This document shows, one piece after another, positions 1,889-28,913 of a DNA stretch of 64,000 bases. Under the pieces are notes generated by a model. That model was not told the origin of the DNA. It was given only the letters and a program-made list of their open reading frames with translations, and searched no databases. The position numbers and the translations under genes were made by a program. The stretch covers positions 1 to 64,000 of IMG/VR virus record IMGVR_UViG_3300043399_001092; one strand, 5' to 3'. The first letter of the stretch is position 1, and every line of letters starts with the position of its first letter. The DNA comes from a virus.

Positions 1889-2122
1889 ATGAAAATCGAA
1901 GCTAATACTTGGTACCTTACCCGTGATAAGAAACACGTGGTCTATGTTTCTGAACTAATCCGTGATGAACACGGATATGTGGAAGGAATGGTTTGTTCCG
2001 ACGATGTTCCGAGAAACGAAAGAGGTATGTACTACCGGTGCAGTTACCATGCTCTTGACTTGACAAAGGTTGTAAAGGTTCATACTGCATCAGAACCGGT
2101 TCTCAAAAATACCTTCCTGTAG
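1889..2122 (+). CDS. small hypothetical phage protein
   Basis: 77-aa ORF with A-rich start context; 3' end overlaps the convergent giant gene by 33 nt. Confidence 0.55.
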   Translation: MKIEANTWYLTRDKKHVVYVSELIRDEHGYVEGMVCSDDVPRNERGMYYRCSYHALDLTKVVKVHTASEPVLKNTFL

Positions 2123-5100: not shown

Positions 5101-6142
5101 CCCAAAGACTTCTTATGTTGTTGACAAGAATAGAGAAATCGTGGTTGATGACGATAGCTTCTACTTCACTTCTTAATTGTTCCGCAGCAATGGCATCTTC
5201 TTGTTTGGTACTCTTTTCCAGTTTACGTATTTTTGCAAACTGGTCTTTGAGGAAGTTGTCGATGTTTTTGACTTTTACCTTTTCCGTGAGCAACAGTGCT
5301 TGGGTTACACCAGATCCTTTCTCAAACGGTGAAGCCAACCTGGTTATCTTTTTCTTGGTCTTGTAAGTTCGAGTAACTTTGTCGTATGTCGAATCAATAA
5401 GGATGGGTAGTACAATAGCTCTCCCGGCAATTACGTCTGTAACGCCATAAGCGGCTTTTACATCCGCCGCAAGAATACCAAGCTGAATTTCGTACTCCTT
5501 GTACTTCTTGGTAAGACGCTCTGTATTTATGAAAGTACCGGATGCGTCAAAGTCTTTTGCAGAAACAATCTGAAACTTGAAGTCATATACCATTGCTGTT
5601 TTATCGGAGAACACAACAATCACGTCAATGGTAGAAGCCCTGGACTTTTTGGGATTAATGATAATCTGCTCCGAAAAAATCTTGAAGTCTTTAGTAGGGT
5701 CAATTTCCTTTTGTCTCTTGGCAGCATACGCTTTTATTGAATCAACAGCATGTCTAATTTGATTCAATACTGTTTGATCAATCTCCCATTCTCCGATATG
5801 TGTTCCAACCGGCTCACCTTTTATTATTTTCTCAAAGACTTTGTGACCGGCCGTCCCGGCTTCTGCAAATATGGGATCATTTTTATACTCTTTCTTCTCT
5901 TTGTTTTTATTCAAGATTCTATCCCGGTCTTTGGTTGCCGTTGTCGAGAACTCTTGTTTCCCGGACAATCTTCCTTCAGCGTAATACACGTGATCCTCCT
6001 CACGAAGCTTTATGTTTTCGGAGGTATGCTTAAACCTTTTTTCAATATCTTCGTAGGTATCTTCTGGTCGTATCTCATACGCCATTTCCCTATTTTGAAT
6101 AAGGTTTATCAGTTCATCAATGTTGGGTACTGTACAAGCCAT
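2090..6142 (-). CDS. large cargo/ejection protein with N-terminal PD-(D/E)XK nuclease-like domain and C-terminal hydrophobic helix
   Basis: 1350 aa, last gene of the late block; GTAGHKVFE..SEQII..STIDVI..VYDFK..YEIQLGI nuclease-like pattern; TM-like IFGLIAFLLMLSAAM; synteny with crAss-like giant genes. Confidence 0.7.
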   Translation of the reverse strand: MACTVPNIDELINLIQNREMAYEIRPEDTYEDIEKRFKHTSENIKLREEDHVYYAEGRLSGKQEFSTTATKDRDRILNKNKEKKEYKNDPIFAEAGTAGHKVFEKIIKGEPVGTHIGEWEIDQTVLNQIRHAVDSIKAYAAKRQKEIDPTKDFKIFSEQIIINPKKSRASTIDVIVVFSDKTAMVYDFKFQIVSAKDFDASGTFINTERLTKKYKEYEIQLGILAADVKAAYGVTDVIAGRAIVLPILIDSTYDKVTRTYKTKKKITRLASPFEKGSGVTQALLLTEKVKVKNIDNFLKDQFAKIRKLEKSTKQEDAIAAEQLRSEVEAIVINHDFSILVNNIRSLWEDYEKRKDEPKFFANGKSNFKHYTDKEAVELVGKIRSAADMFTRMGEYYSRMSKSSHKGKELADVAKAVIGPFTQEITYMMNEMDSMVVNRYIAGLLGDNVLEDGELKMQREEGSLNQMFFGLSDQKNYFMRALNEIKLENERQVNSELEKFIKDWSKVNNSVNEWINANSRAAFIKKLVNPKTKNLIGQLDKKFFDERSARKKMEDVDWFKKYYEPYITEEEFIARKNRFRETLKLQGLDEKKIKARMDQYDKNFNLWSTNPERAINAWTNDRAVKMKESLFSDKNWITKEYADIIDTPLGEFYNFYRKSMGNFLGMVDAPERANFIPWIRQGLVEGFLNSEGMSPKLLADAVLNSIMARNDSGYLSMDEGSKLNREVPVYFMSPVLDDNGNPIPGEEKSMDLMHSLLVFGKMAMTHKAVKQRVGIANMLVEAYGNSRLYETTARGSLKRVGSEFATREVTAKEKEIAEALRDYHFYGIDMRSKDAIYKIGDREISRTEILRTLKSRWTMITLSFGLKQALGGYVAAKLNAWIDGAKGVHYSTDQFNNAVKLYYKEPTKMSALGLFMDIYSESVIERKLKAVGMDPADMGKFRQKDFIRTFKDHTYAQWWRNFNIDRMAMGVWRYEAETRDNALIGAVSQNFGVNKNNEFVRFKKQDFEKDGITLKQELKDQGFRQMYEIFEYDEKDGPRFNINATDEQKHHLYIRFREALKKIRNGISGEVSDEDKSYVNMTVWGMLIMQYRSWMPNILKERFGELSYDHRTMAAEQGRYRVAFKHLFQDTSKKDIPFTNLVLTGMARFGRMMAEATYIPSAVRSLAGKEKQFTPDVERLELEYKVWKEENPDLAEQISLEDYAEMRISQLGATIVEMRMIFGLIAFLLMLSAAMKADDDEEDEYALRFGYSIMRKAYSELSFTVNPLEYTRLTKNAIPLADAITRVYKAAVNTFDELRDTVYEEDSSYDRAEWFHYSKGLVPFGANVGRLLEWSEEDEKYLQEGIFENRF

Positions 6143-6145
6143 AAG

Positions 6146-9100
6146 TTAAATTCCGCATTGCAGGGGAAAATCCCCGTTGTTTAAAAGTGATTCAGCATAT
6201 CTCTTTTCTTCGTCCGTAAGATATTTCAAAGAAGGTATAGCATCCACCATACGCCCTTCTTTGTTCTCTACTTCGGTCAACTGGTATTCGTTGTTTGCCG
6301 CTACAAAGGTAGCTCTTTCATCTTTAAGCTGCTGTTTGTATTTCTCAAGTAAGTCGTAGGACAACTGTACGTTGAACTCCTTTTCGTTTTCGGTGATTTT
6401 CATAAACTCCGAAATCTTGTCACCATATACCGCATAGTAAGAATCAAGGATGCCTCTGACAATATCAAAGTCTTTCTTGACCTTTATGGTCGTTACATCA
6501 TCTTCTGCCGATACAGTGCCGTATTCTTCGATCTCAGACACCATTTCATTCAAGGTAGTACTTGATATAGGCGGAGTGTAAATAACGCGGCTATCGGCCA
6601 ATGAGAGGTACTCATACACATTCTGTTTCAGTATCCTCTTGTCCAGTACACCGGCCGCTACCAGTTCAGCCATGTTGTCTACAAACGTCTTCTTGTCATC
6701 CAGTCGTTGGTTTACCCACTTGGTCATTTCTGGGTCTGTCATGTAGCCTCTGATGAACGAGAACAGGTCTTTGAAGTGATCCTTCATTTCAACCTTATCG
6801 CCATACTGCTTACGAAGACGATCCAGTTTACCGGTTAGGTAGCTGTATTGTACCGTGTTGGATTGAGCTTCAAGACTCTTGGTACCCATCTTGTCAAACA
6901 GACCTACCAGTGTTTGATTGAGGATGTCTTTGGCAGCTTGGTCATTTTGCCCTTGTTCAACAACAGGAACCTCTACCTTACCAGTTTCTGGGTTGTAGGC
7001 TATCATCCCGGCGGTATCAACTTGTACCAGTTCAACCGGATTCTGTTTGAGCAACGGCTCCATCCTCTTAGCCAAAAGAGCGTTGGACGCATTGTTGTCC
7101 AACTTGGTTTGTTCTACAAACGCTTCTGTGGTTGGCGGCAGAGGAACATTTGTTGGTTCAACACGTTCTTCCTCACGATATACATTCTCGTAAGGAATAA
7201 AACGATTGTAGTCCCAAATATCTTTTAGTCTTCCAAAAGTTAGCTTTGCCTTAAACGTATTTCTCCAATCAGCAATATTAAGTTCAATTCCGGAAGCTAA
7301 TTTGATTCTTTGGCTTTTGAAGTTTTCTTCGTTGTAAGTATTGTAACTGAAAATATCAACAACCTTTGCTTCTACATTTCCCGTGTGAGAATCAGAAAGA
7401 GGTTCGTAGCTGCTTACAACAGTACCGTTTTTATCTACAATATCATATCCTCCGATTCGGTTGTTCGAGCCTTCCAATACAAGGTTTTCAATCGTGTATC
7501 CGTCAGGTGCAACAATCCAAGTATCTGTAGTATATTCCTCAGAAATAATTTCTCGAATGTAGTGGTTGCGAGGGTACAGACTTTCAAATATCTTTTTTGA
7601 TTGATTTCTGGCAAGAGGAGAAATCCAGTCCAAGTCGTGTACTGCATTTTCTTCTGGTCTGTACACCGTACCTTGTTCAGCCAAAGTAACACTGCCGGTA
7701 AGAATAAAGTGCGGCGACATCTTTTCTACAATCGTATTTGCAAACTTGTCTTTTTCTAAAGCCTCGTTCAAAGAAACTTTACCTATTACTTTTCCTACAG
7801 CTCCAGGTTTAAAGGTAGAAGAAGTTATCAGAGATTCGTTTTGAAGAAGTATGCCGTCTGCAATTATACCAACGTTCCTATTTATTCTATCTATGCGAAC
7901 AGAAGAAAGAAGCTCAAAGAATTGACGAATCAATGCTGCAATAGAATCCAACAAAGATTTAGGTAAAGCTGTATTTGTTCTTTTGTGAAGTTCCTGGGAA
8001 ATTAAATCTCCAACGGCATCCAACAACTCATCTTGACTGAGGTTCTTGAACATAGAATACTTTTTCATTGACGAAGTAATTTCCGTGACAAGAGGGTTGT
8101 GTTGCATCATATATGCAATAACTTTCCCGGCTTGTTGTGGATAATCACTTTGGTTATTCTTGTTTACGTAAAGAACCTTGTTTAAAATATCAACATGAGC
8201 AAAGCTGTCTATACCCAATTTAAACTGAAGGTCGTCAAGTGTTTCTGTTTTAATTCCAAACTTGGATAAGTACATGGCTAAACTTTTGTTTAGCTCTGTA
8301 TCCAACTCCTTGTAAACAGCAGGGTTGTTTATAATATCTTGACGGTTTATAGCTACTTTGTTTAGAGAAGAGTTCTTTATTATTTCGTTGACAACTCCAT
8401 CTACGTCACTTTTTGACAAATCTTTGTTTTGCAATTTTTTTGACAATCGATAAGCGTTGTAATCATAAATGCCAATTTGCTTTAATAGAGAAAACACTTT
8501 GCCACTTTCTTCTTTTTTATAACTTTCCTTCAAACGCTTAAGCAAAGAAAAGTAGTTAAAGAATGTGTCGTACTTGGCAACATCCTCATACGATACCTTA
8601 TCTACACTCTTCTTAAATATCTTTTCGATCAACTCCTTGTTTGAGAAATACAAGTTCTTAACCATGTCCTCGCCTCTAAAATCATAAGGCTTATCCACAT
8701 CAAGTTTGTACAATCCCTTTTTTTCAAGCATCCTTCCTATGTCTGCCGGAACAGAAGCCATAAAACTTACATTGCTAAAAAGAACATCCAGTTCGGCGTA
8801 TAACTCTCTTATTGAAGGAGAGGACATAAGTCTTCCTTTAAACACGTTGTTTTTAGAATCCCATTCGCCAAAGATGTAAGTGTTCTTTGATTTAAACACT
8901 TGTAAGTTTCCGAGAACAGCTCCTTCAAACTTATCCAAAGTAATTTCCTTTCCTTCTCTCTTTCTTCCCATAAGAGCAACATAGTTGTCATATATGGTTT
9001 TTATCTCATCCTTTGAAAGGTTGAGTTCTTTGGCGGTATTTATTATTCTGAACCCTCCTGACTTTTCATAAGCGGCTTGTTTATCAAACGGAACTACTGC

Positions 9101-10033
9101 TTCCTGTACACCCGGCTTAACCGCAGCACCTTGTTCACTGTATTCTTGAGCTTGTTGTTCTTGCTCTGGAGTCAAAAACAAATCCGCCAAGTATTTGTCC
9201 GTGGTAATCACTTTGCTTTGAGGAACTTTGGAAACCGCTTCATTTATCTGCGACTTCCATTCTGCAACATCATACTTAGCACCTCTCTCCTGTATTCTTT
9301 TGTTGAACTCCTTGTCCGTAAGATTGATGACCTTATCGAACAAGTCAAGGTTATTCCTCAACAGATTGGTGTTTGATGTAAACAAGGTCTTGCCTTCAGA
9401 CAAAGCTCTGTCTTTGGCTTTGTCAAACATAGACTGCATCATCTGGTTGTACTCTTTATTCCACTTTTGAGTACCGCCATCTTTTACCTGGTAAGGTGTT
9501 ACATTGTACTTGGCCGCAATTTCCTTTACAGCCTTGTTTATTTCCGTAGCATAGTCATCGTCCAAAGAAATAAACTTATCCTCACCACGAGTCTTCAAGA
9601 AGCTCTTACCGATAGTTGGATGCCCAAAGACAACCCTGTCATTTGGCGTAATCATCTTATCGAACCCCAAGGCTTGGTACACTTGGTTTGATACAGGTTG
9701 TGTACTACTTGGTGCAACACCAACATCCTTATTGTACACCAGTTTCTGGAACCCCGGCTCTGTCATAAACTCACTCTCCGGTAATCCACTTAGGTATGCA
9801 GCACCATAAAGTGCTTTTGCAATATCAACCGCAGAACGTCCGGCTATCTTGTTTTGAGATACCAGGTTATCAACGTACTCCTTATTGGCTGTATAAGAAG
9901 CCTTACGGTTGGTTATGTTTTTTTCGAGATCGCCGACAATTTTAGGGTAGAGCTCGGAAGCTCCACCCTGATTGTTTACTGCCGTATGCTCTCCTTTGTT
10001 GTTCTTGCCAAATTGAATACTGCAAAAAGACAT
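6146..10033 (-). CDS. multidomain cargo protein (P-loop, degenerate zincin-like and nucleotidyltransferase-like domains)
   Basis: Start reassigned to ATG 10033 (MSFCS; TAATG overlap with the upstream stop), 1295 aa; VVFGHPTIGKS Walker A; FILTGS..HDLDW..RLKD Pol-beta-type motifs. Confidence 0.65.
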   Translation of the reverse strand: MSFCSIQFGKNNKGEHTAVNNQGGASELYPKIVGDLEKNITNRKASYTANKEYVDNLVSQNKIAGRSAVDIAKALYGAAYLSGLPESEFMTEPGFQKLVYNKDVGVAPSSTQPVSNQVYQALGFDKMITPNDRVVFGHPTIGKSFLKTRGEDKFISLDDDYATEINKAVKEIAAKYNVTPYQVKDGGTQKWNKEYNQMMQSMFDKAKDRALSEGKTLFTSNTNLLRNNLDLFDKVINLTDKEFNKRIQERGAKYDVAEWKSQINEAVSKVPQSKVITTDKYLADLFLTPEQEQQAQEYSEQGAAVKPGVQEAVVPFDKQAAYEKSGGFRIINTAKELNLSKDEIKTIYDNYVALMGRKREGKEITLDKFEGAVLGNLQVFKSKNTYIFGEWDSKNNVFKGRLMSSPSIRELYAELDVLFSNVSFMASVPADIGRMLEKKGLYKLDVDKPYDFRGEDMVKNLYFSNKELIEKIFKKSVDKVSYEDVAKYDTFFNYFSLLKRLKESYKKEESGKVFSLLKQIGIYDYNAYRLSKKLQNKDLSKSDVDGVVNEIIKNSSLNKVAINRQDIINNPAVYKELDTELNKSLAMYLSKFGIKTETLDDLQFKLGIDSFAHVDILNKVLYVNKNNQSDYPQQAGKVIAYMMQHNPLVTEITSSMKKYSMFKNLSQDELLDAVGDLISQELHKRTNTALPKSLLDSIAALIRQFFELLSSVRIDRINRNVGIIADGILLQNESLITSSTFKPGAVGKVIGKVSLNEALEKDKFANTIVEKMSPHFILTGSVTLAEQGTVYRPEENAVHDLDWISPLARNQSKKIFESLYPRNHYIREIISEEYTTDTWIVAPDGYTIENLVLEGSNNRIGGYDIVDKNGTVVSSYEPLSDSHTGNVEAKVVDIFSYNTYNEENFKSQRIKLASGIELNIADWRNTFKAKLTFGRLKDIWDYNRFIPYENVYREEERVEPTNVPLPPTTEAFVEQTKLDNNASNALLAKRMEPLLKQNPVELVQVDTAGMIAYNPETGKVEVPVVEQGQNDQAAKDILNQTLVGLFDKMGTKSLEAQSNTVQYSYLTGKLDRLRKQYGDKVEMKDHFKDLFSFIRGYMTDPEMTKWVNQRLDDKKTFVDNMAELVAAGVLDKRILKQNVYEYLSLADSRVIYTPPISSTTLNEMVSEIEEYGTVSAEDDVTTIKVKKDFDIVRGILDSYYAVYGDKISEFMKITENEKEFNVQLSYDLLEKYKQQLKDERATFVAANNEYQLTEVENKEGRMVDAIPSLKYLTDEEKRYAESLLNNGDFPLQCGI

Positions 10034-10455
10034 TACTTCAGGAATTTGAGTTTGTAGATCGTACTGGACATTAGTTCGCACACATCATCGATAATCTGTT
10101 GGAGCGCACCTTTGCTGAAATTCATCTTCATCATTTCTACTTCACCACACTTCTTTTGCAGGTAGCTCAAGAAGTCAATGTTGTTCTGCACCGTTATGGT
10201 AGTATCATACTCTACAATCTTACCATAGAAGCCCTGGTAGCTTTCTACGAACCGATCCAGTAGATCAGGAAGACCATCGTAGAGTTCATTCATTGCCTTG
10301 TGAGCGGCATAAGAACCGCTTTGGAGGTGTGAGATATGGGCCTGGGTAGTAACTTCAAACAGAAGGGAAGCCAGTTCACCACAGGGGCATCCTACCGAGG
10401 AGCCGGGGAGAGTGGGGAGTCCACCGTGGGACATAATGCGTCTTGCGTCAATCAT
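10033..10455 (-). CDS. ferritin/Dps-like four-helix protein (DUF5856-like)
   Basis: QAHISHLQSGSYAAHKAMNELYDGLPDLLDRFVESYQG...IIDD...TIYKLKFLK matches the phage ferritin-like pattern. Confidence 0.75.
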   Translation of the reverse strand: MIDARRIMSHGGLPTLPGSSVGCPCGELASLLFEVTTQAHISHLQSGSYAAHKAMNELYDGLPDLLDRFVESYQGFYGKIVEYDTTITVQNNIDFLSYLQKKCGEVEMMKMNFSKGALQQIIDDVCELMSSTIYKLKFLK

Positions 10456-10476
10456 GGTTGTATTGGTTTTGGTTGA

Positions 10477-13400
10477 TTAAGAATTACAATCTTCTAATGC
10501 GTTCTCTTTTCCTTTTTCTATGTTATTCGGCAAAGATACACTGGGTTGAGTAGTAGCAGCGGTGGGTTGAGAGGGTGCTGTGGGTTTAGACAAAACATCA
10601 TCCAACTGTTGTCTCCAATTTGAATCCTGCATATTAATAGTCGGAATACCCTTTCTTCTTGCCATTTCAACAGCTTGACCAGTTCCCCCTTCAGGTCTGA
10701 TGCCTTTACCTTCATTGGCCCAGAACAAAACAAAGTCAACAGGGGTATCCAACTTGGCACCAAATATCTGATTGGTGTTCCTTGCCATTAGCTTTAATCC
10801 ACCTTCAGTTAATGCACTTGGTTTAGGATGTATTTCTTTAGCAATAGCTATTTCTTTAGCTCCTGCTTTTTCAGGAGCAAACAAGTTTTTCTTATTTGTT
10901 CCTTTTGAAAATGCAGCATCGGCACCCTCTTCTTTATTTCCAAACGTTTTACCTGTATTAAGCGTATATCTATCCGATAACTCTTTGGCAACCTCCGTCA
11001 TTTGCTGAAGTATTTCCGGCGGAGTTTGTCTTGACCCAATACCAGCATACGTCATTGTAGGAGTAGCAGACTTACCAGGAAGTTTATTAAACTCTGTGGC
11101 ACCAGGCTTTACGATTGTTGTAATAGCACTTGGTTCTGCACTTGGCGTAGGTGCTATTTCAGTTTCCTTTTCAACAGTAAGTTTTGGTCTTGCTGCAGAA
11201 GGAATCTGTATAGAACCTCCCAAGTCAGTGTTGTAAAACTTATAACCAAAACCAGATGTGGTTTCAAAGTCTCTTCTTCTTCCGCTAAACTCTACCACAT
11301 CCATCTTTTTTGTTTTTTGGTTGTAGGACTTAAAGTACACAGGAAGACCTTTAGCTTTTTCTCTTGCCTCATGTACTTGTTCCTCCATATCATCTTGATC
11401 CTTGTAAAGATTCTCCAACAACCAAGGATTAGCAATGTAAAACTTCCTTTTGAAATCGGAAAACACTTTATCTTTTTCAGCAGTCGGCATTGACAAAAAC
11501 CCATTAATTGCTTTTTGAGCCAATGAGAATTTACTTTCTCCATCGGTTTCTTTTTCAAACATTTCTGGTTTGACGGGAAGAAACGAATCCAACGACAAGT
11601 AGCCTCCCGAGTATCCGGTAGCGTAAATGTTGTAAGCAACCAAGTCAAGGAAAAACTCTTTTGCTCCGGCGGCAACATCTTTCATCTCTTCAATGTACTC
11701 ATTCAGCATAAAAAGACTTTCCCCCATATCCGAACGACGGATAGCATTAATAGGTTTGTTGTCATAAACCGCCGCATTAAGAGTAGGTATAAGCCTTTTG
11801 ATAATTCTAAACCGTTCGTTGTCTTTGATACCTTTAATCTTCTCCAACAGTTGTGCCGCCGATCGTTTATCAATTTCTCCGGTCAAGATGTTTCTACCAC
11901 GCCGACCTTTAAAGAAATCAAGGTTTTGAACCAGGTAGTTAATAAAATCTTCGTGAACAACCTTGTTAAACTTCTTTCTTTTTTCCGCAGAAATATATCC
12001 TCCTACACTTTTGTCTATTGTCATAAATACAGGAATATCTAATTTTTCCAAGATGTAAAAAGGCTTGTACATATCATTGTACTGACGATAAATGTCAAAG
12101 AACGCACTCATTGGTCCATCGACACTTGACTTCCAAGTATCTTCAACCAATCCTGTATTAACAGAAGCCTTTGCAATTTTATCACTTCTTTCCAACCAGT
12201 CTTCCCGGCGCTTTGGTTTAAAAGTATCCAAGCTGACTGCCGACATAAAGGTTCTGTGTTTGGTTGTTTGAGACTTTAGGTCCATAAACAAATCCAACAT
12301 GTAAGCTTGGGCTTCCGGCTTAAACTCTCGAAGTATTTTCAAGAAGGTCTTTTGATCATCAATTCCTTGGGGAACATCCGGTCTTTTATACACGTTCTTT
12401 CCGTTTTCATTTTTTCCAAGAACCATGAGTTTACCCATAGCTTCCATATAAGCCGTGTCAAAACTATTGATTCTATACTTCTGACGCAGACTGTTCCTTA
12501 TCTTGTTTGTCAACCCTCGCTCCTTATACGGAACAGAATCATAAATGGTTTTGTACTTAAGGTAATCTCGGATAGCCGGTTGAGCAAAAAAGTAAATGAT
12601 GTCCATGTGAGGCACACCTCTTTGCAACAAGTATGTTGCCATGTTCAGTGTTTCACCAACAAGACCAAGTACTTTAGCATAAGGGTCTTTAACGGCGTCC
12701 ACTTGCGATGTAAGAAGCCCGGACAGCAGTTCTGATATAAACTCATTATCTTGATTTAGGATGGTGGAGAACGAAGAATTTTTATCCGCCGGAAGAAACG
12801 GAATTGTTCTAACCTGTACCACTGCACCATCTGCATCAAGAACCTCTAACCTAATAGTGTACCCGTACAACTGGTTCACGGTATTACCGGTAATAGTAAC
12901 AGCCACTTGACCCACACCGCCTTTGGAAGCAATGTTCTCCCTGGTTTTGATGACGTTGGTTACTGCGGTATAAGCATCAAAGATAGAGACCTTCTTGTCA
13001 GGATTTAAACTTTCGTAGTAAGCCTTTTCTTCCGTCGTTCTTGCAGACTTTGCGCCCTTTTCAGATATTTCTTTCAGTTTGCTTTTGGCTTCAATCCTCC
13101 AGTGCGTATCATCCGTCGGCTTCATCAAGTTCATAAAGTTCTCTTCCAGAGTCATGATCTCCAACTCTACTTCCAACAACTCATTTTCTTCTGCTTTTCT
13201 GAACAGACTTTTCTTTCCTTCCAACTCCATCAAGTTCAACTGAAGTTTTTCAAAGACCGCTTTTTTAGCAAGGTCTTGAGGACTTTCCCCAAGATCATTT
13301 ATTTCTTCCCGGTATCTTTCGATTACCTGTTTGGCTTTTTCAATACCGAGCAAATTGCTGTCTGAAAATTCCGAATCTTCCATAAGAGTTAGAAACCTAT

Positions 13401-16400
13401 CGGTGTAGTCAGACAGGTTCTTCTCAACAAGTTCTTTGGTCAAGTACAAAAACTTCATGTTCTTACCTCTTCCAGACAATATGCCGTGACCCAGGTACAT
13501 GTTTAGTTTATCAATGTCAAAGTCCGAACCTACCTTGGTAGCAATAATCGGCGGTACTACTACCATTGCCGTATTGGTAGGAACAAAGAACCTCTTAACC
13601 CGGAATACGTCGTTGGAGGACAACTGTTGATTGGGAATACGAAGACCTTTGATGAACAACATTTGTTCGTCAAACTTACTAAAGTTGCCGTCTGCAATAT
13701 CCTTGTTGACTCTCTTAACCAGTTCTATAATGTCACGGGTTCCATACAATTCCATAAAGTCGTTAAGCCATTTGGTCGGAAATGGCATACCTATATCGGC
13801 ATACTTTTTATCTCCTTCGTACATTTGATAATCCTCAGATACATAAATCCTACCTTCAGTTCCTCCTTTTTCATCAGTGACTTCCTTGTAGAGTGTAGGT
13901 GTTTTGCTATCAACTTCTTCAAAGAAGATAGAGCTTACCTGGGGCACGGAGTTACCATTACGCTTTTGTTTTGTAACTTCGTTACGCACCAAAGAGTACA
14001 GCACCGGTTCAATCTTGAACCTGTTTGGAAGCAACTCAATAGCCTTATGTTCTGCTTCCGCAAACAAGTCCATTACATCCAATACGTTATTTGCAGCACC
14101 TCTTTCGCTCAAAGATCTCTTGAGTTCACCAACAAGTTTTTTGATGTCACTGTACTCACCTTCTTTTAAGTATCCGACTTCTTTCTCAAGAAAGTTAATA
14201 GACTCTCGAATCCGGTTTGCAGTTATATCGGAATACTTAGAAACCAAGTCGTAAATACGAGATACCTGTCTTTTTTTAAAATGCGGCATATCATACCAAG
14301 ATTCTCTAAGCTCCGGTTTAATATCGATTGGTACTCCCGCATTGAACAAATTGGAAATGGTTAGCTTATACGACTGACTGGAGGATATGACTTTTCCTTT
14401 TTCCTTGTTGGCAATAGCAACCTGGTGTTTGAAGTACTTAGCTTCCATAAACTGGATGTGAGAATCCAGATCTTCTTTCACGTTGTCATTGGCCACTGCT
14501 TTACCTTTATTGACCGTGTAAGCCATCTTCATACCTTTAACCAACTTTCTTTCACCAAGCTTCTTACTGTCGTCAAGAGCTTTTTTGTTCTGAGTCTTGA
14601 TGCGTTGTCCTACTTTCCGCGCAGAACCAAAACCTAAAACACCTATGCCATTTTCAACCAGGTTGCGATGGATAGACTCCAACTTGGTTCCCATTATCTG
14701 AGAAGGCAGCATTGGATAAAAACTGGTTTTAGCTACTCCTTTTGCAGCATAACCGCTCTTTCCTTTATTTTTCCAGTATGGTCCGGCGTATTGACCTTTC
14801 ATGGTTTCGGCTAATCCCAAGAACTCGTTGAAGTAAACGTATGCGTCTTCTCCTTCGGGTACAGTGTAAGCAGAGTAGTCACCGTTGAATATGCGAACCT
14901 CCATTTCAAACAACCGTTGATGAGCTTCAGACCATTGACCCCATTGTATCTTGGTGCGCCTCCATTGAAACAGGTTGATGTAAGATTGACCGTCACCCCA
15001 GTTGGTTTTCTTATAAGCATTCTTAAGTTTAGCTGCATGAATTTCGGAAAGATTTTCAGCCTCTTGTTCACTGTATCCAAGGTTGAGCAACATGGTCTTC
15101 ATAGAACCTTTTGCTCTTTCTTTGTAGTTGTTCAGTTGACTTTCCGGTACATAGTAATCCTCTTCTGCAAATGCTTTAGTAGCAATCATGTCCGGGTTAC
15201 TGGCATTAGGAATACTGCTGTAAGACACTAATTCCCTTTTACCTTTGAAGTTCATATAGAACATACTTCCTTCTCTATTTTCGCTATTGATGATAAAATC
15301 ACTTATGGTTTTTCCGTGAGCAGATAGTTCGCCGGTGGATGACCAAACGTTGAATCGCTTAAAGCTATCAGCACCATTCTTGTAAATCTTGGGATCACCG
15401 GTAAATATAAAAGACTGTTCAATGTTTCCGGCCAACGTGTTAACCGAATACAATCGAGAAATTACTTTAATAGCTTCTTCATAAATTTGATCCTGTTGTG
15501 TTTTAGGATCAAACTTGTATTTTTCAATTACCTCTTTTTTTACATCGTTCCAAATAGCGTTACTAATACCGACCGGCATAGAAACACCTCCAACTTCTAC
15601 TTTTCTGTATATACCTGAACTCTTTATGTACTCATGCTCATTTTCAAAATGCTTCATTGCGCCCTTGTACAACTTATCGAGTTCTTGTTTGAACTCTTTT
15701 GAGTTTTTGTCTACTACACGTCCGTCCTTTACCAGGTTATCGTAGTTTACAAAAGCTCCAAAAAGACTATCCTCGTTTAAGGCTGTACTCAAATACTGAA
15801 TATCAGAAGGACGATAAGCTAAACTTTTTGCTTCTTCATAAAGATAATCTGCAAAAAACGACTTGAAAGAACTTTCAAATTCTTTAAGGCCAATGTCTTC
15901 TATCATAAGGTTTTTAGAAATCTTTCCGGCGGCTTTAGGTATTTCAAGTTGCACGGAGTAAAGAACACTTCTATCAGAGTGCTTTACCGCTTGGTAGTGA
16001 GTTACACTTGAATTTAGCAACTGGTTGATATAAGTAGAAAACAGGGTTGTTTCTTCAACCTCCGAAAGATCCTGTGCTACTGACTTGTCTTTTGTTTGAA
16101 TACCTTGGTTCACGTTCAAACGTATCTTTCCTCCAGTCTGTAACATTCTTTTAAGCCAAGAACTGTTTGTAAAACCCCAAGATTCTAAATGCGGAAGTTT
16201 AGCTTTTAGTAAATTGAACTTCTGCGACAAAGAAAGATTGGGAGTTTTGTTTATTTCTTCAACAGCGGAATTTAACTCATTGACCATTTGGGTCATGTAG
16301 TTGTTCAGAGCAATACCGTAAACCCGTTCTCCCCCGGCTGTTACCATGGAGCTTTCTGTAATAACCCCTGTAGACAATATCTGATCAGCAATAATTTTAG

Positions 16401-18243
16401 CCGCCTTGTCAATAGGGAAAGTATTAAAAGCTGCGTTTGAAAACATTTTCAACAAGTCAGCTTTTTTAGCAGGATCACCTCCTATTTCTTTTACAACAGC
16501 ATCGTTTATTATCTTAAGCTGATCACGAAATCTTGTTTTTTCCTCATCGTTTTGCAATAGGTCATAAAAGCTTCTAAGGCCAAAAGCATCTACGTACTTT
16601 TCACCAACCACCTCCTTTGCGGTAGTAAATCCTTTCATTATCTTGAAGAACTCTTCAACGCCGCCTTTTTCGTTAATCGAGTTTATCAATCGGGTTGACA
16701 TTTCAGCAGCCGACTTCTGCAACCTTGCATATTTAGAGGAATCAATAATTTTTACATATCCGCCTTCGTACTCTGTCACCAACATGTTGTACCTGGTATT
16801 GGTGTACTGTACAATAAACTGAATACGGTTGTACATGGCAGCATCTTTTAGGTTGCTACCATCTTTTCCTCCAAGTACTTGAATCAACTTTGAAATAGCC
16901 GGGCCATAGGTTTTGTTATTTGACAGTTCCTCCAGTTTATTAAACACCGCTTCATCTGTAGCCAGTGTACCGGCAAGATTCTCGTTCAAGAAGTTGGAAA
17001 GCTCTACCCAGTTAAAGCTCCGGGTCATTCCATATCTTGAAGTGTCGTTTGTGTTCTCAATAGCCGACAGGATAATCCTAACCGCTGTCTTTACACGGGA
17101 GTTGGGATCTATTTCAAAAGACGCTTTGTCAAAAGCAGCCCCTTCACTTTGTCCATCTGGTGTAGTTTCCTCTACTTCCTTGTTTTCATCCGCCGGTTTT
17201 GTCAAAGGTTGTCCATCTGTATCCAGAACATCATCTTCGTTTTCTTGCACTTGAACAAAGCTAAGTTGCTTACTCAACAGTTCAGCATGTTGCTTATACT
17301 TGGCAAGTATCTTGCTCTTTGACTTGTCCGGTTGCATCAAGTCATTTTTCAATGCCAAGTAAAACCAAGCCTTGTCCTTTTCAAAAGAAGTGAGTTCGTT
17401 ATACGACTTTCTTTTTTCAAGGTAATCAGTCAAACCAAGTTGCTTTTCAATCTCCTTCAGCGTTTTATTGACAACAACTCCTTCGTTCATTTCTTTCTTA
17501 CCTTCAAGAATATCTGACAAGTTACCACCTGTCATAATACCTTCAATGTAGTTACGATGCATCAGTTCAATAACCGGAGCAAAGTCATCATATAGTACAT
17601 CAATAGACTGACCTTTGAACTCCAGTTTGATACTCTTTGATTTTTGAAAAGCATTGGTGACTGGTCTTGAAACATACCCTCCCTTGTTCATCATGTCATA
17701 GATACGCTCAATCTCCGACGGCTTAGCTCCGGTGATATACTTGAGCATCTTGGCCAGTTGATCAAACAGTTTCTGGAGGAACGTCCTGGGCTTAGGTTCA
17801 CCCAGGACAAAGTTTGCAAACTCATCCGCAAAGTACTCCTCGATCAACACGTCTTCGTTATTACCGTACTCTGCTCGGTACGGTTCAATCAACTGTTTCC
17901 AGTTCTTGTTGGTCTTGAGTTCCCTTACAGCAGCCTCTCGTTCTTGTGCCGTTAAAGCCCCCTGCCATACCCTGTGGAAGGTTTCGTGGTACACGGTGGA
18001 GGTAGTAGCCAGGTCGGACAAAAGAATCGTTCCATCGGCATTTAATTGACCTATAGCCCTATCTTCTATTAGCCCTTTGACAAACCCTATCTGGGAATCC
18101 GTCATCCCGGTTATGCGCCGTAGTTCTTCTTTGGCAAACGATTGATCAACCACCTTAGCGGATGCTATCTTACCATCCTTGATGAGTTTGAGCATTTCTC
18201 CACGGGAGTATTCGTTGCCATTATAAACGTATCTACAAGACAT
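10477..18243 (-). CDS. virion-packaged single-chain RNA polymerase (phi14:2 gp66-like) with N-terminal zincin and C-terminal SLOG domain
   Basis: 2588 aa; catalytic GSDFDIDK (~13504-13530) preceded by LRIPNQ; DGQSY, SARKVG and VDAVKDP motifs; HETFH..EEYFADEF near the N-terminus; YAGIGSR..GGTGQAV near the C-terminus. Confidence 0.92.
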   Translation of the reverse strand: MSCRYVYNGNEYSRGEMLKLIKDGKIASAKVVDQSFAKEELRRITGMTDSQIGFVKGLIEDRAIGQLNADGTILLSDLATTSTVYHETFHRVWQGALTAQEREAAVRELKTNKNWKQLIEPYRAEYGNNEDVLIEEYFADEFANFVLGEPKPRTFLQKLFDQLAKMLKYITGAKPSEIERIYDMMNKGGYVSRPVTNAFQKSKSIKLEFKGQSIDVLYDDFAPVIELMHRNYIEGIMTGGNLSDILEGKKEMNEGVVVNKTLKEIEKQLGLTDYLEKRKSYNELTSFEKDKAWFYLALKNDLMQPDKSKSKILAKYKQHAELLSKQLSFVQVQENEDDVLDTDGQPLTKPADENKEVEETTPDGQSEGAAFDKASFEIDPNSRVKTAVRIILSAIENTNDTSRYGMTRSFNWVELSNFLNENLAGTLATDEAVFNKLEELSNNKTYGPAISKLIQVLGGKDGSNLKDAAMYNRIQFIVQYTNTRYNMLVTEYEGGYVKIIDSSKYARLQKSAAEMSTRLINSINEKGGVEEFFKIMKGFTTAKEVVGEKYVDAFGLRSFYDLLQNDEEKTRFRDQLKIINDAVVKEIGGDPAKKADLLKMFSNAAFNTFPIDKAAKIIADQILSTGVITESSMVTAGGERVYGIALNNYMTQMVNELNSAVEEINKTPNLSLSQKFNLLKAKLPHLESWGFTNSSWLKRMLQTGGKIRLNVNQGIQTKDKSVAQDLSEVEETTLFSTYINQLLNSSVTHYQAVKHSDRSVLYSVQLEIPKAAGKISKNLMIEDIGLKEFESSFKSFFADYLYEEAKSLAYRPSDIQYLSTALNEDSLFGAFVNYDNLVKDGRVVDKNSKEFKQELDKLYKGAMKHFENEHEYIKSSGIYRKVEVGGVSMPVGISNAIWNDVKKEVIEKYKFDPKTQQDQIYEEAIKVISRLYSVNTLAGNIEQSFIFTGDPKIYKNGADSFKRFNVWSSTGELSAHGKTISDFIINSENREGSMFYMNFKGKRELVSYSSIPNASNPDMIATKAFAEEDYYVPESQLNNYKERAKGSMKTMLLNLGYSEQEAENLSEIHAAKLKNAYKKTNWGDGQSYINLFQWRRTKIQWGQWSEAHQRLFEMEVRIFNGDYSAYTVPEGEDAYVYFNEFLGLAETMKGQYAGPYWKNKGKSGYAAKGVAKTSFYPMLPSQIMGTKLESIHRNLVENGIGVLGFGSARKVGQRIKTQNKKALDDSKKLGERKLVKGMKMAYTVNKGKAVANDNVKEDLDSHIQFMEAKYFKHQVAIANKEKGKVISSSQSYKLTISNLFNAGVPIDIKPELRESWYDMPHFKKRQVSRIYDLVSKYSDITANRIRESINFLEKEVGYLKEGEYSDIKKLVGELKRSLSERGAANNVLDVMDLFAEAEHKAIELLPNRFKIEPVLYSLVRNEVTKQKRNGNSVPQVSSIFFEEVDSKTPTLYKEVTDEKGGTEGRIYVSEDYQMYEGDKKYADIGMPFPTKWLNDFMELYGTRDIIELVKRVNKDIADGNFSKFDEQMLFIKGLRIPNQQLSSNDVFRVKRFFVPTNTAMVVVPPIIATKVGSDFDIDKLNMYLGHGILSGRGKNMKFLYLTKELVEKNLSDYTDRFLTLMEDSEFSDSNLLGIEKAKQVIERYREEINDLGESPQDLAKKAVFEKLQLNLMELEGKKSLFRKAEENELLEVELEIMTLEENFMNLMKPTDDTHWRIEAKSKLKEISEKGAKSARTTEEKAYYESLNPDKKVSIFDAYTAVTNVIKTRENIASKGGVGQVAVTITGNTVNQLYGYTIRLEVLDADGAVVQVRTIPFLPADKNSSFSTILNQDNEFISELLSGLLTSQVDAVKDPYAKVLGLVGETLNMATYLLQRGVPHMDIIYFFAQPAIRDYLKYKTIYDSVPYKERGLTNKIRNSLRQKYRINSFDTAYMEAMGKLMVLGKNENGKNVYKRPDVPQGIDDQKTFLKILREFKPEAQAYMLDLFMDLKSQTTKHRTFMSAVSLDTFKPKRREDWLERSDKIAKASVNTGLVEDTWKSSVDGPMSAFFDIYRQYNDMYKPFYILEKLDIPVFMTIDKSVGGYISAEKRKKFNKVVHEDFINYLVQNLDFFKGRRGRNILTGEIDKRSAAQLLEKIKGIKDNERFRIIKRLIPTLNAAVYDNKPINAIRRSDMGESLFMLNEYIEEMKDVAAGAKEFFLDLVAYNIYATGYSGGYLSLDSFLPVKPEMFEKETDGESKFSLAQKAINGFLSMPTAEKDKVFSDFKRKFYIANPWLLENLYKDQDDMEEQVHEAREKAKGLPVYFKSYNQKTKKMDVVEFSGRRRDFETTSGFGYKFYNTDLGGSIQIPSAARPKLTVEKETEIAPTPSAEPSAITTIVKPGATEFNKLPGKSATPTMTYAGIGSRQTPPEILQQMTEVAKELSDRYTLNTGKTFGNKEEGADAAFSKGTNKKNLFAPEKAGAKEIAIAKEIHPKPSALTEGGLKLMARNTNQIFGAKLDTPVDFVLFWANEGKGIRPEGGTGQAVEMARRKGIPTINMQDSNWRQQLDDVLSKPTAPSQPTAATTQPSVSLPNNIEKGKENALEDCNS

Positions 18244-21200
18244 TAGAAACAGTTTTTGGTTACTTGATTGGTTTCCTCAAGGTTCTTGAGTATCGATCGA
18301 GCTTGATCAACATCAATAATCTTATTTGACTTCTTGTTTGATTCTGAAGGCTTTTCGGAAACTCCTATATAAACACTTGTTTTGTTGGCATGGTTTGTTA
18401 CATTGTTTAAATAAGAATTATTTACCGACTCTCCATCAAAAACTTTTTCTGCATCATTTCTTTGATTTGAATATATTAAAGGAATAGCTTCCAAAAATCT
18501 TTCTTTTGATTTTTCCGGTATTTCGTTGACATATATATTAAGCAGCAAAGACATTGTTGCTTGAGCCGATTTTTCTATATCCAGTAAATCTTTAGATTCA
18601 TTAATGCCAAAAGTGTTTCTGGTTTTTTGATCTACTGAAGAAAGTCTTATTTGAGTTACTCCAATAGAAGGATTTCTATCAATACCCAGCTCTATTGCTC
18701 CTAATTGAGCAATGTCGGTAACTCTTCCAAATTGACCTCTGAGTCCTCCATAACTACCAAAAGAAGACTCTTGCCCAAATATACCATAAGCAACTTTTGC
18801 AATTTGATTATAAACATCGTTTGAAACAGTCGGATACAGTTTCATTAACGCAGGTTTACTTTCAGACAATGTTTGCAAATACTCTTTTCCTTTTTCGTTT
18901 ACATTAGCCGCTTTAATTGTTATAGGTATTGGTTCGTAGTTAGTAATTGTTCTATTGACATCTTTATCACTTGACTTAAATCTAATTTCGCCATCTTCAA
19001 TTACAAATTCATTATGAGGATTATCTGGAAGAATATAGACAACGCCCTCTTCGGCAAAACCGCTTTCCCAAAGATTTTCTAAATCGTCCAAGTTAAAATT
19101 TAAACACCCGTTACTTAAACGATTATTTGAATAATCTTTATCCGAAATTGCAGTTCTTCTTGCCGCGTTTGTAACTTTATGAATAGCCATAGGTACTGCA
19201 ATACCTCTTTCATTCTTTAAATAAAAAGCTTTATCTCCATGATAAGTTCCTCTTTTACTAACTGTAAAAATACCGGCTCCTGTTTTTTTATTACCTTCCG
19301 TCCAATTTGTTTTTGAACTGTATCCTTTTTTAAGATAGCTTACTCCATCTTTTTGATAAGTGGCTTCGTTTGCAGAAACTTGTTTTCCGTTTTTGTCAAA
19401 AAAGATAGACTTTAAAACAGTTTGTTCGTCTCCAACGTTTTCTCCAACTCCTATTTCATAACTGGTTATCAAAGAATCTCCTTCATACAAATGAGCGATC
19501 CCTACAGACTTATCTACAATAATGTACTTGCCGGACTTGTTCTTTTGATAATTAGTAATTGCGTTTACGTTGCCAAGTTTATTTATTTCTTCTTGGTCAA
19601 GAAGTGTTTTTTCAAAAGACTTTAGATTTTCAATATTTGCGGTCCGGTATGTAAAAACATTTTCTCCAGAAGGAAACCTAAAGCTTCCCGCTGTAAATAA
19701 TGTAGAAATAATGAAAATATTAAGAAGCAAACTTTTTATTTTGGCTGCAACTTTTTGAAGCAGTGTTCTTTCTTTACCTTGTGATTTTTCTTTTAGCTGC
19801 CGCAAAACTTCTTTTTTTATAGCTTCTTTTACATCTTCTTTTTTAATATTTTCAGAATCAGAAATTTGTTGTATTTCAGATTCAGAAACGTTTTCTTCTA
19901 TAAGATTATCTATTCCGCTAACATCAACCTGTTCTTCTTTTTGATTAACGGGTTCAGCAGAAAGCCCTTCAGGTTGAGGTGCTACCGGCTGCTCTTCAAC
20001 ATCAAGGTCAGACAAAGGATCTATTTCATCCCGTTCCATCTTTTTTTCCTCTTCGCTTTTTTTCTTTATTACAAACTCCTCTTCTTCTTCTTGAGGTTCT
20101 GCACTTGGAGCAACACTTTTTGAAATAGCTGCTGCTGCATTTTGAGCATTGATGTTGTTCTCATCAACATCGTCCGGTATATCACCAGGCTCATCTTGTG
20201 ACTTACCTTCAGTTGAAGGTGCAGCTTCTGGTGCTGCCGGGGCAGCGGCCGGAGGAGTAGGTTTTGGTTGATTTTCTACTCTTTTTTTGTAAGCCTCTAC
20301 AAACTTTGCCTTTCTTTCATCTTTGTTTTTGTTCCATTCATTTTTAGATTCGTATGTAGAAATATTTGGATAAAAAGTGCCAATAAAATAAGTGTAATCT
20401 GTAAATGGAAAAAAACCATTTGGGTCATATAACTCAGTTGTTTCATCGTCGACAACAAGTGCCAAGTTGTCATTATACACTCTTATTAAAGGTCTATTTT
20501 TTTCAATGAAAAATACATTAATGTAAAATGTTACTGTATTACCCCCCGCGTTTATTTCAAACTTTAAGCCTTCAAAATTATCTCCATCTTTAATGTTTTC
20601 AATTTCTTGTTGACTAAAGCCAAATCTTTTTAATAAAAATTTTACACTATTAAGATTTTTCAAAGCCTTTTCAGAGTATTCTTTAAAATATTCATCTCCG
20701 TATTTTTCAGAAGTTTTAGCCTGTTCATTATTAACCGATTGTTCATTTTGACTACCTGTGACAGTAGATGTAGAAACAGGCGGTGTTGTGGGCGAAGACT
20801 GACTTGAAGTTTCAGTTTTTTTAGATGACTTTCTTTTGTTTGCTCTTTCTTTAATTACGCTGGTTAAGTTGGAAGGATCAATGACTAAGTTAGATTGAAC
20901 AAAAGGCTTGTCTTTCTGAATACGAGCTTCCAAGACATCGTCAAGAAGTTGTTTCGAATAGTTAACGTCTTTACGCAACTTGATTATTCCTTTTTCAAGA
21001 AAAGGAATATCTACGTTTTTACCAAGAAGTTTTTTGTTTACATAGAAATACCTCTTTTGTAAATGCTCCTTAAAGTTCTCAACCGCTTTCTTTTCTACCT
21101 CGGTTCTTTCCTTTTCTGGTTTGCGAAGTACCTCTGCGGATATACTGGAGGGTTTCTTATTAGCACCCTCCTTGTAATAAATAGTATCTCCCTTTTTGTA

Positions 21201-28880: not shown

Positions 28881-28913
28881 GTTGTTGATTTATTAGATTG
28901 TGATGTTGTTTAA

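Follow-up and report, generated by a model that had tools for sequence, protein, structure and literature searches.

Facing terminal cysteines in the giant cargo proteins of crAss-like phages and a candidate disulfide-linked thread

The subject of this analysis is a block of four giant genes in a stretch of viral DNA (IMG/VR record IMGVR_UViG_3300043399_001092, positions 1 to 64,000; 64,000 nucleotides), which is called the window below. Judged by their sequences, the encoded proteins are most likely the RNA-polymerase-associated cargo block of a crAss-like phage. They hold only seven cysteines (Cys), six of which lie at protein ends, where the C-terminal Cys of one protein faces the N-terminal Cys of the next. 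The same pairing recurs across the Crassvirales, where split genes carry it and fused genes do not. On balance, and with considerable reserve, we favor the reading that the facing Cys form intermolecular disulfides, by which the block would become a linear thread standing in for a polyprotein. The genes and junctions concerned are the following (aa, amino acids).

18243-26132, minus strand: g2629, first chain member, 2629 aa; codon of Cys 2628 at 18249-18251
18235-18251, minus strand: junction J1, where ..TKNCF-stop overlaps ATG-TCT-TGT (MSC..); type A, with tail [IV]TK[NT]C and leader M.C[KR]Y.Y.G..Y
10477-18243, minus strand: g2588, predicted virion RNA polymerase (vRNAP), middle chain member, 2588 aa; codons of Cys 3 at 18235-18237 and of Cys 2586 at 10486-10488
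10033-10455, minus strand: g140, ferritin-like DUF5856 protein inserted at junction J2, with four internal Cys and outside the chain
6146-10033, minus strand: g1295, middle chain member, 1295 aa; codons of Cys 4 at 10022-10024 and of Cys 1293 at 6155-6157
6134-6157, minus strand: junction J3, ..LQCGI-stop-CTT-ATG-GCT-TGT (MAC..), with tail L.NG.[IL].[IL].C.. and leader M.C..P...EL
2090-6142, minus strand: g1350, last chain member, 1350 aa; codon of Cys 3 at 6134-6136

The four proteins (2629, 2588, 1295 and 1350 aa) contain 7 Cys in 7862 residues. In g2629 these are the internal Cys 2343 (LSNGCLNF) and Cys 2628 (..TKNCF), with none at the N-terminus. The vRNAP has only Cys 3 (MSC..) and Cys 2586 (..EDCNS), g1295 only Cys 4 (MSFC..) and Cys 1293 (..LQCGI), and g1350 only Cys 3 (MAC..), its C-terminus being free of Cys. 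All six terminal Cys are thus found at residue 3 or 4 or one to two residues from the end, and they face each other in gene order: the first protein carries a C-terminal Cys only, the two middle proteins carry one at both ends, and the last carries an N-terminal Cys only. The original prediction had counted seven Cys by hand and had read the layout as a linear chain. A scripted count of the open reading frames (ORFs) is identical, with no extra internal Cys, and it agrees with the absence of an N-terminal Cys in the first protein and of a C-terminal Cys in the last. The six codon coordinates given at that time are correct on the sequence. It had further assigned the seventh Cys to an SNGC motif and seen the pattern continue across the inserted ferritin-like gene; Cys 2343 does fall inside the region with a marginal YkuD profile match, and g140 does sit at J2 between Cys 2586 and Cys 4.

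The Cys content of the four giants is 0.089%, as against 1.20% in the other ORFs of the window, a rate at which about 94 Cys would be predicted in place of the 7 observed. The probability that at least six of seven Cys lie within 4 residues of one of the eight termini is 3e-14, and terminal clustering by chance is excluded. The terminal Cys are also conserved. In an alignment of 16 vRNAP homologues (A1), C2586 is invariant and C3 nearly so, and in 25 homologues of g1350 at 15-23% identity (A3) C3 is invariant. The relative of g2629 in the locus L004 (92% level) shares the ending ..NQVTKNCF. The Cys 3 of g1350 is predicted to stand on a floppy free tail before a well-predicted nuclease-like domain, since residues 1-5 have a predicted local distance difference test score (pLDDT) below 50 in an AlphaFold2 model of the protein (mean pLDDT 67).

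The N-terminal Cys can be missed when the start codon is chosen automatically. In g1295 the longest ORF begins at GTG 10081, 16 codons upstream, and would make the Cys residue 20; the start used here is the ATG that overlaps the g140 stop. The public gene call for the vRNAP of the window (P0001, 2572 aa) starts at Met 17 and has lost Cys 3. The leader dropped by this call is the conserved MSCRYVYNGNEYSRGE (window positions 18196-18243, minus strand). The starts used overlap the preceding stop (TAATG), and L004, a close relative, has the same stop-start overlap. In addition, the N-terminus of the vRNAP (MSCRYVYNGNEY / MACKYIYKGN) is conserved at the protein level over its first dozen residues among homologues that are 40-65% identical. 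The ATG starts are therefore supported by the protein-level conservation of the leader together with the overlap shared with L004.

The four giants are probably packed into the particle and injected. Their presence in the virion is assumed because homologues were found by mass spectrometry (MS) in the phages phi14:2 and crAss001.

Pairing, splits and fusions across Crassvirales

A profile scan of IMG/VR gave 80 loci, corresponding to 59 clusters at 70% and 26 clusters at 50% identity of the vRNAP core, and nearly every one of these loci reads X~C C~Y~C C~Z. A Cys lies at most 5 residues from the C-terminus in all but two or three of 52 homologues of the vRNAP and its fused forms in the databases, and all members of vRNAP size have another at residues 3-6. 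The original prediction, that a C-terminal Cys would co-occur with an N-terminal Cys in the next cargo gene, was borne out in a count over 181 distinct junctions whose flanking ORFs have 400 aa or more. Both Cys are present at 95 junctions and both are missing at 72. The downstream Cys alone is found at 13 junctions, 12 of which involve a different, Cys-rich module after the chain, and the upstream Cys alone at 1. Overall, 95 paired junctions are set against one or two real exceptions (Fisher p=1e-35 for the co-occurrence over the 181 junctions).

The N-terminal Cys is residue 3, 4, 5 or 6 in 50, 31, 10 and 4 cases, respectively, so that 2-5 residues stand in front of it, while the C-terminal Cys has 0-7 residues behind it. 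As codons, TGT and TGC both occur. Taken together, 193 distinct chain proteins (441,837 aa) contain 289 Cys, of which 235 are terminal, and the rate of non-terminal Cys is 0.012%. Those that recur do so at fixed spots of enzyme domains, for example in CEIM..WF about 75-82 residues before the catalytic motif DFDID. This internal Cys, in the form C[EQ][IV]M..[HR]WF, is seen in one sub-clade (L021, L036, L037, L041, L051, L079 and others); the polymerase of the window has no Cys at that position.

Some exceptions are only apparent. In L031 and L081 the C-terminal Cys stands 29 and 18 residues from the end, and a "split" without Cys in L032 is an overlapping frame break in a lineage whose relatives are fused. 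The module that follows the chain in L022, L024, L034, L036, L037, L039, L041, L051, L059 and L070 consists of a protein of about 70-140 aa (an N-terminal Cys, three Cys in total) and a large Cys-rich protein with M..[ILSV]C....C at its start (Cys 5 and 10). The latter may be a fiber or hub protein that uses disulfides. As the last giant lacks a C-terminal Cys, the module is placed outside the chain.

An artifact of stop-start overlap or translational coupling was considered as the origin of the pattern and was ruled out by the opposite-strand partner in crAss001-like phages, by the variable spacing and by the use of both Cys codons. Since these phages encode the first partner on the other strand, the pairing follows the proteins and not the adjacency of the genes.

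The cargo block is encoded as one, two or three larger polypeptides in other lineages, and the break between the first protein and the vRNAP is lineage-dependent. In the window it lies directly before the zincin-like domain, elsewhere 500-900 residues before it. In many lineages the two are fused into a protein of 4000-5000 aa, and no Cys is found at the point homologous to J1; the fused protein of L045 reads ETVTYKGTRY where the split N-termini read MACKYIYKGN. Similarly, g1295 and g1350 together match single "last" proteins of other lineages (2300-2580 aa), which have an N-terminal Cys only. A split within one 70% cluster can be followed from L051 to L053. The former has an unsplit last protein of 2150 aa with one Cys, the latter has 421~C and C~1739 with a GIY-YIG homing endonuclease between them. 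From residue 24 to its end, the 1739-aa protein is 91% identical to L051, and its 23-residue Cys leader has no counterpart there.

A break of another kind is present in cr108_1 (L002, MT774385), where a group I intron (24391-24709; RF00028, 80 bits, E=9e-21) interrupts the vRNAP inside SD|YDIDK with no Cys on either side. The record lists two separate vRNAP coding sequences, the second with the odd start LYDIDKMY. New gene splits thus gain Cys pairs, as had been suggested, while fused or intron-healed forms are without them. Judged from these comparisons, facing Cys are a rule across Crassvirales that reflects selection at the protein level, because the Cys co-occur at junctions, splits carry the pairs and the fused or intron-healed forms do not.

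GIY-YIG/NUMOD3 homing endonucleases lie between Cys-tipped ends in three loci (L048 15760-16353, L053 19330-20004, L062 10024-10641). Their genes are homologous (31-43% identical), and the leader behind them is always of type A (M.CK[YHI].Y..). Among some 100 junctions of the other types no GIY-YIG nuclease was found, and J1-J3 of the window hold no nuclease gene.

The ORF size cut-off hides a set of small proteins between the giants. They span 106-396 aa, have exactly two Cys, one at residue 3-4 and the other 0-2 residues before the C-terminus, and resemble extra links in the chain:

L005: 20680-21075
L012: 7703-8275
L016: 18280-18600
L048: 14518-15708
L058: 14076-14591
L082: 16684-17313

The sequences that flank the junction Cys fall into recurring types of tail and leader:

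Type A: tail [SN]G.[IL].[IK].C, leader M.C[KR]Y.Y.G..Y; J1 of the window and the three junctions with GIY-YIG nucleases
Type B: tail GY..E[EQ].G.I.K..C, leader CPN[IK]N..EW..LV; other loci
Type F: tail L.NG.[IL].[IL].C.., leader M.C..P...EL; J3 of the window

The tail of type F is found on dissimilar upstream proteins, namely g1295, the 131-aa link of L005 and the 3113-aa vRNAP of L006. Over 110 junctions, tail and leader similarity co-vary with r=0.22-0.26, compared to a maximum of 0.048 in 2000 shuffles; relatedness contributes to this value. Each tail and its leader resemble a cognate docking pair. The partners are assigned most economically head to tail in gene order, because in two-member chains the leader of the last protein faces the C-terminus of the polymerase-bearing protein, and this tail-leader type is unchanged when the first protein is split off.

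The tipped ends also seem to persist when the protein between them changes. Residues 1-107 and 952-1295 of g1295 are 92% identical to an 829-aa protein of L004, while residues 324-965 match a portion of the last protein in L083 at 63% identity; the polymerase of that locus is only about 21% identical to that of the window. Ends that match L004 around a center that matches the distant L083 point to a lateral swap of the central module of g1295 in which the Cys-tipped ends were kept.

Possible linkage of the facing cysteines

In the favored reading, a cut in the cargo block would leave an upstream tail with a Cys 0-7 residues from its end and a downstream leader with a Cys at residue 3-6. Each tail and leader would dock as a cognate pair, and the two thiols would form an intermolecular disulfide in the assembled particle. 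The order of the thread would be 2629 -S-S- 2588 (vRNAP) -S-S- 1295 -S-S- 1350, and it would behave like an unsplit polyprotein. As the links are at the extreme ends, the thread would remain unbranched and could pass, partly unfolded, through a narrow tail channel (the constrictions in crAss001 are below 50 Å). The purging of other Cys would prevent wrong links in the particle or in the oxidizing periplasm, and a preformed terminal disulfide would be the one safe way to retain a thiol during passage through the latter. Reduction in the cytoplasm would finally free the parts.

Beyond the conserved pattern and its link to gene splits, both seen here, one such disulfide is known from the cyanopodophage A4 (Anabaena phage A-4L). 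It was seen by cryo-electron microscopy and joins Cys1715 of gp27 to Cys5 of gp26, in which the gp27 C-terminal helix is docked (PNAS 2025, PMC12002296). By analogy with this junction we infer the disulfide in crassviruses, and with it co-packaging at a fixed ratio, ordered ejection and reductive release.

Several points weigh against this reading. The support for the bond comes from A4 by analogy, and the crAss001 structure paper leaves the proteins of the RNA polymerase block unresolved and is silent on their cysteines. A4 is an analogy and no more, because no match of its proteins to the crAss giants was seen in sequence or in fold. No match at E<=1 was obtained by phmmer between A4 gp26-gp29 and the crAss giants, and the A4 chains are absent among the fold matches of the g1350 model, which is long and of middling confidence, so that the folds may still agree. 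The junction counts (95 of 181 and the others) are phylogenetically non-independent. One clear exception is found in L005, whose vRNAP (2533 aa) has no C-terminal Cys before a protein with a Cys leader. L022 has two junctions of the same tail-leader type, and mispairing would thus be possible. Finally, phages assemble in the reducing cytoplasm and many of the hosts live in the anoxic gut, and bonds in purified virions could be formed by air. As a separate observation, a 61-aa ORF with an internal CHSC (17599-17784) lies between the vRNAP and the Cys-leader protein of L005.

A more tentative proposal, which is rather to be doubted, makes tail and leader a portable clasp that re-stitches, via a disulfide, cargo cut by GIY-YIG or ferritin-like inserts. 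J1 (type A, ..VTKNCF / MSCRYVYNGNEY) would then be a clasp whose nuclease gene has been lost. If this were true, genes disrupted by mobile elements could be mended by a third route in addition to introns and inteins, and the tolerance of crassviruses for splits so numerous and varied would be explained. A clasp that is truly portable would also be a simple means, taken from nature, of linking proteins by their ends.

It is unlikely that the facing Cys instead bind a shared metal ion, either as a Cys-metal-Cys bridge or in a cluster of several junctions. Such a link could form during assembly even under reducing and anoxic conditions, it would agree with the numbers of facing Cys no less than disulfides do, and a ferritin-like gene is found at a junction in the window, L004, L031 and L005. 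However, each end provides one thiol with no conserved His, Cys or Asp adjacent to it, and Zn or Fe would be bound only weakly by two ligands. The L031 homologue of g140 does not keep its CPC motif, and the sole solved example of the layout, that of A4, is a direct disulfide.

Less likely still, the terminal Cys might anchor each giant to another part of the virion, such as the portal barrel, the capsid interior or the cargo proteins C1 and C2. The tails of crAss001 have many heterologous disulfides, and the location of the RNA polymerase block in the head is unresolved in that structure, which would leave room for an anchor. Nevertheless, every complete block has as many N-terminal as C-terminal Cys, and the outer ends are free of Cys in lineage after lineage. 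The C2-like proteins have no Cys at all and the C1-like proteins no terminal Cys, and an anchor to a third partner does not predict that the pairs vanish when genes are fused.

We give very little credence to the view that the pairs are a functionless by-product of gene splitting and that the scarcity of Cys is simply its known avoidance in proteins that pass through the periplasm. Suppression of Cys is indeed documented in Schitoviridae, and T7 gp15 and gp16 are without Cys; GIY-YIG or ferritin-like genes are found at some junctions, and the split of L053 came with a recombined cassette. Yet the terminal Cys are invariant across lineages at 15-25% identity in proteins where other Cys make up 0.012% of residues. 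Both codons are used, and the pairs persist without an insert and with opposite-strand partners. Moreover, Schitoviridae and T7 illustrate that ejected proteins can dispense with terminal Cys altogether.

The idea that the Cys drive covalent peptide ligation through a thioester, as in inteins or native chemical ligation, and so rebuild a true polyprotein is hardly credible: Cys at new C- and N-termini, sometimes with a homing endonuclease between them, do recall fractured genes with split inteins (PMC2677866), but intein halves need about 100 aa and about 35 aa ending in HN where the giants have only 0-7 residues after the one Cys and 2-5 before the other, and the giants are annotated separately as virion proteins by MS/MS in phi14:2 and are listed separately in the mass spectrometry of crAss001 (262, 154 and 277 kDa).

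The favored reading, a thread stitched by disulfides, bears on the question of how about 1 megadalton of protein, including an RNA polymerase, is stored and injected. No phages are more abundant in the human gut than crassviruses. If true, the thread would explain the free splitting and fusing of the genes, their poverty in Cys and the fact that the pattern is hidden by later start calls. According to the crAss001 structure paper, packing and protein-protein interactions probably determine the order of ejection. The thread would also give this idea a concrete form, and cytoplasmic reduction would act as a redox switch to release the polymerase.

The original prediction had also stated that no description of such a mechanism was known. 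This stands for crassviruses, where none was found; no mention of the cysteines of crAss cargo proteins was found in the literature searched, including the phi14:2 polymerase preprint and the crAss001 atlas. It does not stand more widely, as the A4 junction (PMC12002296) and the Cys suppression in Schitoviridae (PMC11445570) have been published.

Domains and neighbors of the cargo block

The domains within the chain, and the genes directly upstream of it, are as follows.

26136-32345, minus strand: g914 (no Cys) and g1143 (two internal Cys), upstream cargo-like proteins outside the chain
19065-19529, minus strand: YkuD (L,D-transpeptidase)-like region of g2629, with the sole internal Cys of the block (Cys 2343)
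17974-17988, minus strand: HExxH (zincin-like) motif of the vRNAP, directly after the Cys leader; H86, E87 and H90 invariant in A1
13510-13524, minus strand: DFDID catalytic motif of the vRNAP, pattern [SA]D[FY]DIDK
10585-11058, minus strand: DprA/SLOG-like domain, vRNAP residues 2396-2553 (PHROG 768, E=1.5e-39)
5282-5971, minus strand: predicted PD-(D/E)XK nuclease fold (RecB/Cas4/MGME1-like), g1350 residues 58-287 (VIA-align Z 8.2-9.4)

By its profile, g2588 is a crAss-type virion RNA polymerase. The profile of the A1 alignment matches PDB 6VR4 (phi14:2 gp66) with E=5e-77, and D1574, D1576 and D1578 of DFDID are invariant in the alignment. Only the profile reached 6VR4; phmmer with the single vRNAP sequence gave no match among the PDB sequences, nor did megablast of the gene against phage records. 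A zincin-like protease domain in the cargo gene block of crAss phages has been described by Drobysheva et al. Toward the C-terminus, tblastn gave matches to DprA-like genes of phages. Two vRNAP relatives, P0004 and P0007, have helicase domains (PF13604, PF13538, PF05970) where the window has this domain, and in all three the terminal Cys comes after the extra C-terminal domain. This region of the vRNAP resembles a slot that takes up accessory domains for injection.

The YkuD-like region of g2629 is marginal: PF03734 scores 24.2 bits on the sub-region alone (cut-off 23.4) and 18.3 bits on the whole protein, and phmmer with the region found no match among the PDB sequences. The L004 orthologue is without this domain and has the terminal Cys only. 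A lytic-transglycosylase-like motif near the C-terminus of g2629 was unconfirmed by Pfam.

The N-terminal part of g1350 is plausibly an injected nuclease domain, as its structure model suggests. Over 153-179 residues the model aligns with MGME1, AdnA/AddA, Cas4, RecB and RecE at a root-mean-square deviation of 4.0-5.5, and Foldseek gave weak matches to the same PD-(D/E)XK family. E158, D173, D187 and K189 are invariant in the 25 homologues at 15-23% identity.

The ferritin-like g140 is recognized as DUF5856 (Pfam PF19174, E=6.5e-22; PHROG 858). A DUF5856 gene also follows the vRNAP in L004 (18265-18687) and L031 (15886-16296), and L005 has a Ferritin gene (PF00210, 20192-20683) at another junction of its cargo block. 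Ferritin-like genes thus recur at Cys-tipped junctions of the block in distant lineages. A role of g140 as thiol oxidase via a CPC motif was considered and is unsupported, the motif being missing in the DUF5856 homologue of L031.

The window as a whole is the structural arm of a crAss-like phage, and the four giants stand at the end of its structural module. PHROGs identify a portal, a major head protein and a large virion structural protein in it. CrAss_Ring_1 and CrAss_Ring_2 are present by Pfam, and both homologues are Cys-rich. The upstream g1143 has a weak match to crAss_CARG1 (22.6 bits, below the cut-off of 27).

Comparison with known systems

In phi14:2 the layout is the same as in the window. 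The sole Cys of g067 is its last residue, g066 has Cys 3 and Cys 2179 in a length of 2180 aa, and g065 has Cys 3 only; all three are virion proteins verified by MS. The proteins gp47, gp50 and gp49 of crAss001 share the gene block, the vRNAP and the Cys layout with the window. In PhiCrAssBcn22, a crAss001-like phage, the first protein (2341 aa, opposite strand) has a Cys only at position -2, the vRNAP (2412 aa) has Cys 5 and a Cys 8 residues from the end, and the last protein (1349 aa) has Cys 5 only. Disulfides as such are familiar in these particles, as crAss001 virions contain many intermolecular ones in their ring and hub proteins and heterologous ones in the tail. Some crassviruses fuse the cargo block into one polyprotein, for which cleavage by a protease has been proposed (phi14:2 polymerase preprint). 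The window differs from phi14:2 and crAss001 in its four chain members, the inserted ferritin-like gene and the YkuD-like and DprA/SLOG-like domains.

Giant ejected proteins that have lost nearly all their Cys, with a virion RNA polymerase among them, are also found in Schitoviridae and T7. In the ejected proteins of Schitoviridae (N4 gp50-52, DEV gp71-73) the suppression of Cys has been ascribed to the oxidizing periplasm (PMC11445570), and T7 gp15 and gp16 have 0 Cys. These systems, however, keep no terminal Cys and form no chain, whereas in the crAss block it is just the facing Cys that have been retained. T7 gp14 (L086 1729-2319) has a single Cys at residue 2 (MCW..).

A split gene healed by its new ends is known from the NrdA of Aeh1, where insertion of the homing endonuclease mobE brought tails that assemble the halves (Crona et al., PMC3045599). 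The resemblance to L048, L053 and L062 lies in the nuclease gene between the halves and in the new terminal tails. In contrast to the crAss junctions, the tails of NrdA are non-covalent and no Cys pair is reported for them; the junctions of the window, for their part, hold no nuclease gene.

The A4 proteins provide the nearest parallel for the bond itself. According to the A-4L genome, gp27 (1717 aa) has Cys 1715 (..NPCQF) as its sole Cys and gp26 (1114 aa) has Cys 5 (MSKHC..). As with the crAss giants, these are large ejected proteins of consecutive genes, the upstream one with a near-C-terminal Cys and the downstream one with a Cys at residues 3-6. Unlike the window, A4 has one such junction and not three, and its block includes no RNA polymerase. 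The bond is regarded there as a local stabilizer and not as a rule tied to gene splits (PMC12002296). By this analogy, what is new would be a version of the A4-type bond with multiple links and coupled to gene splits, in a different and very abundant order of phages.

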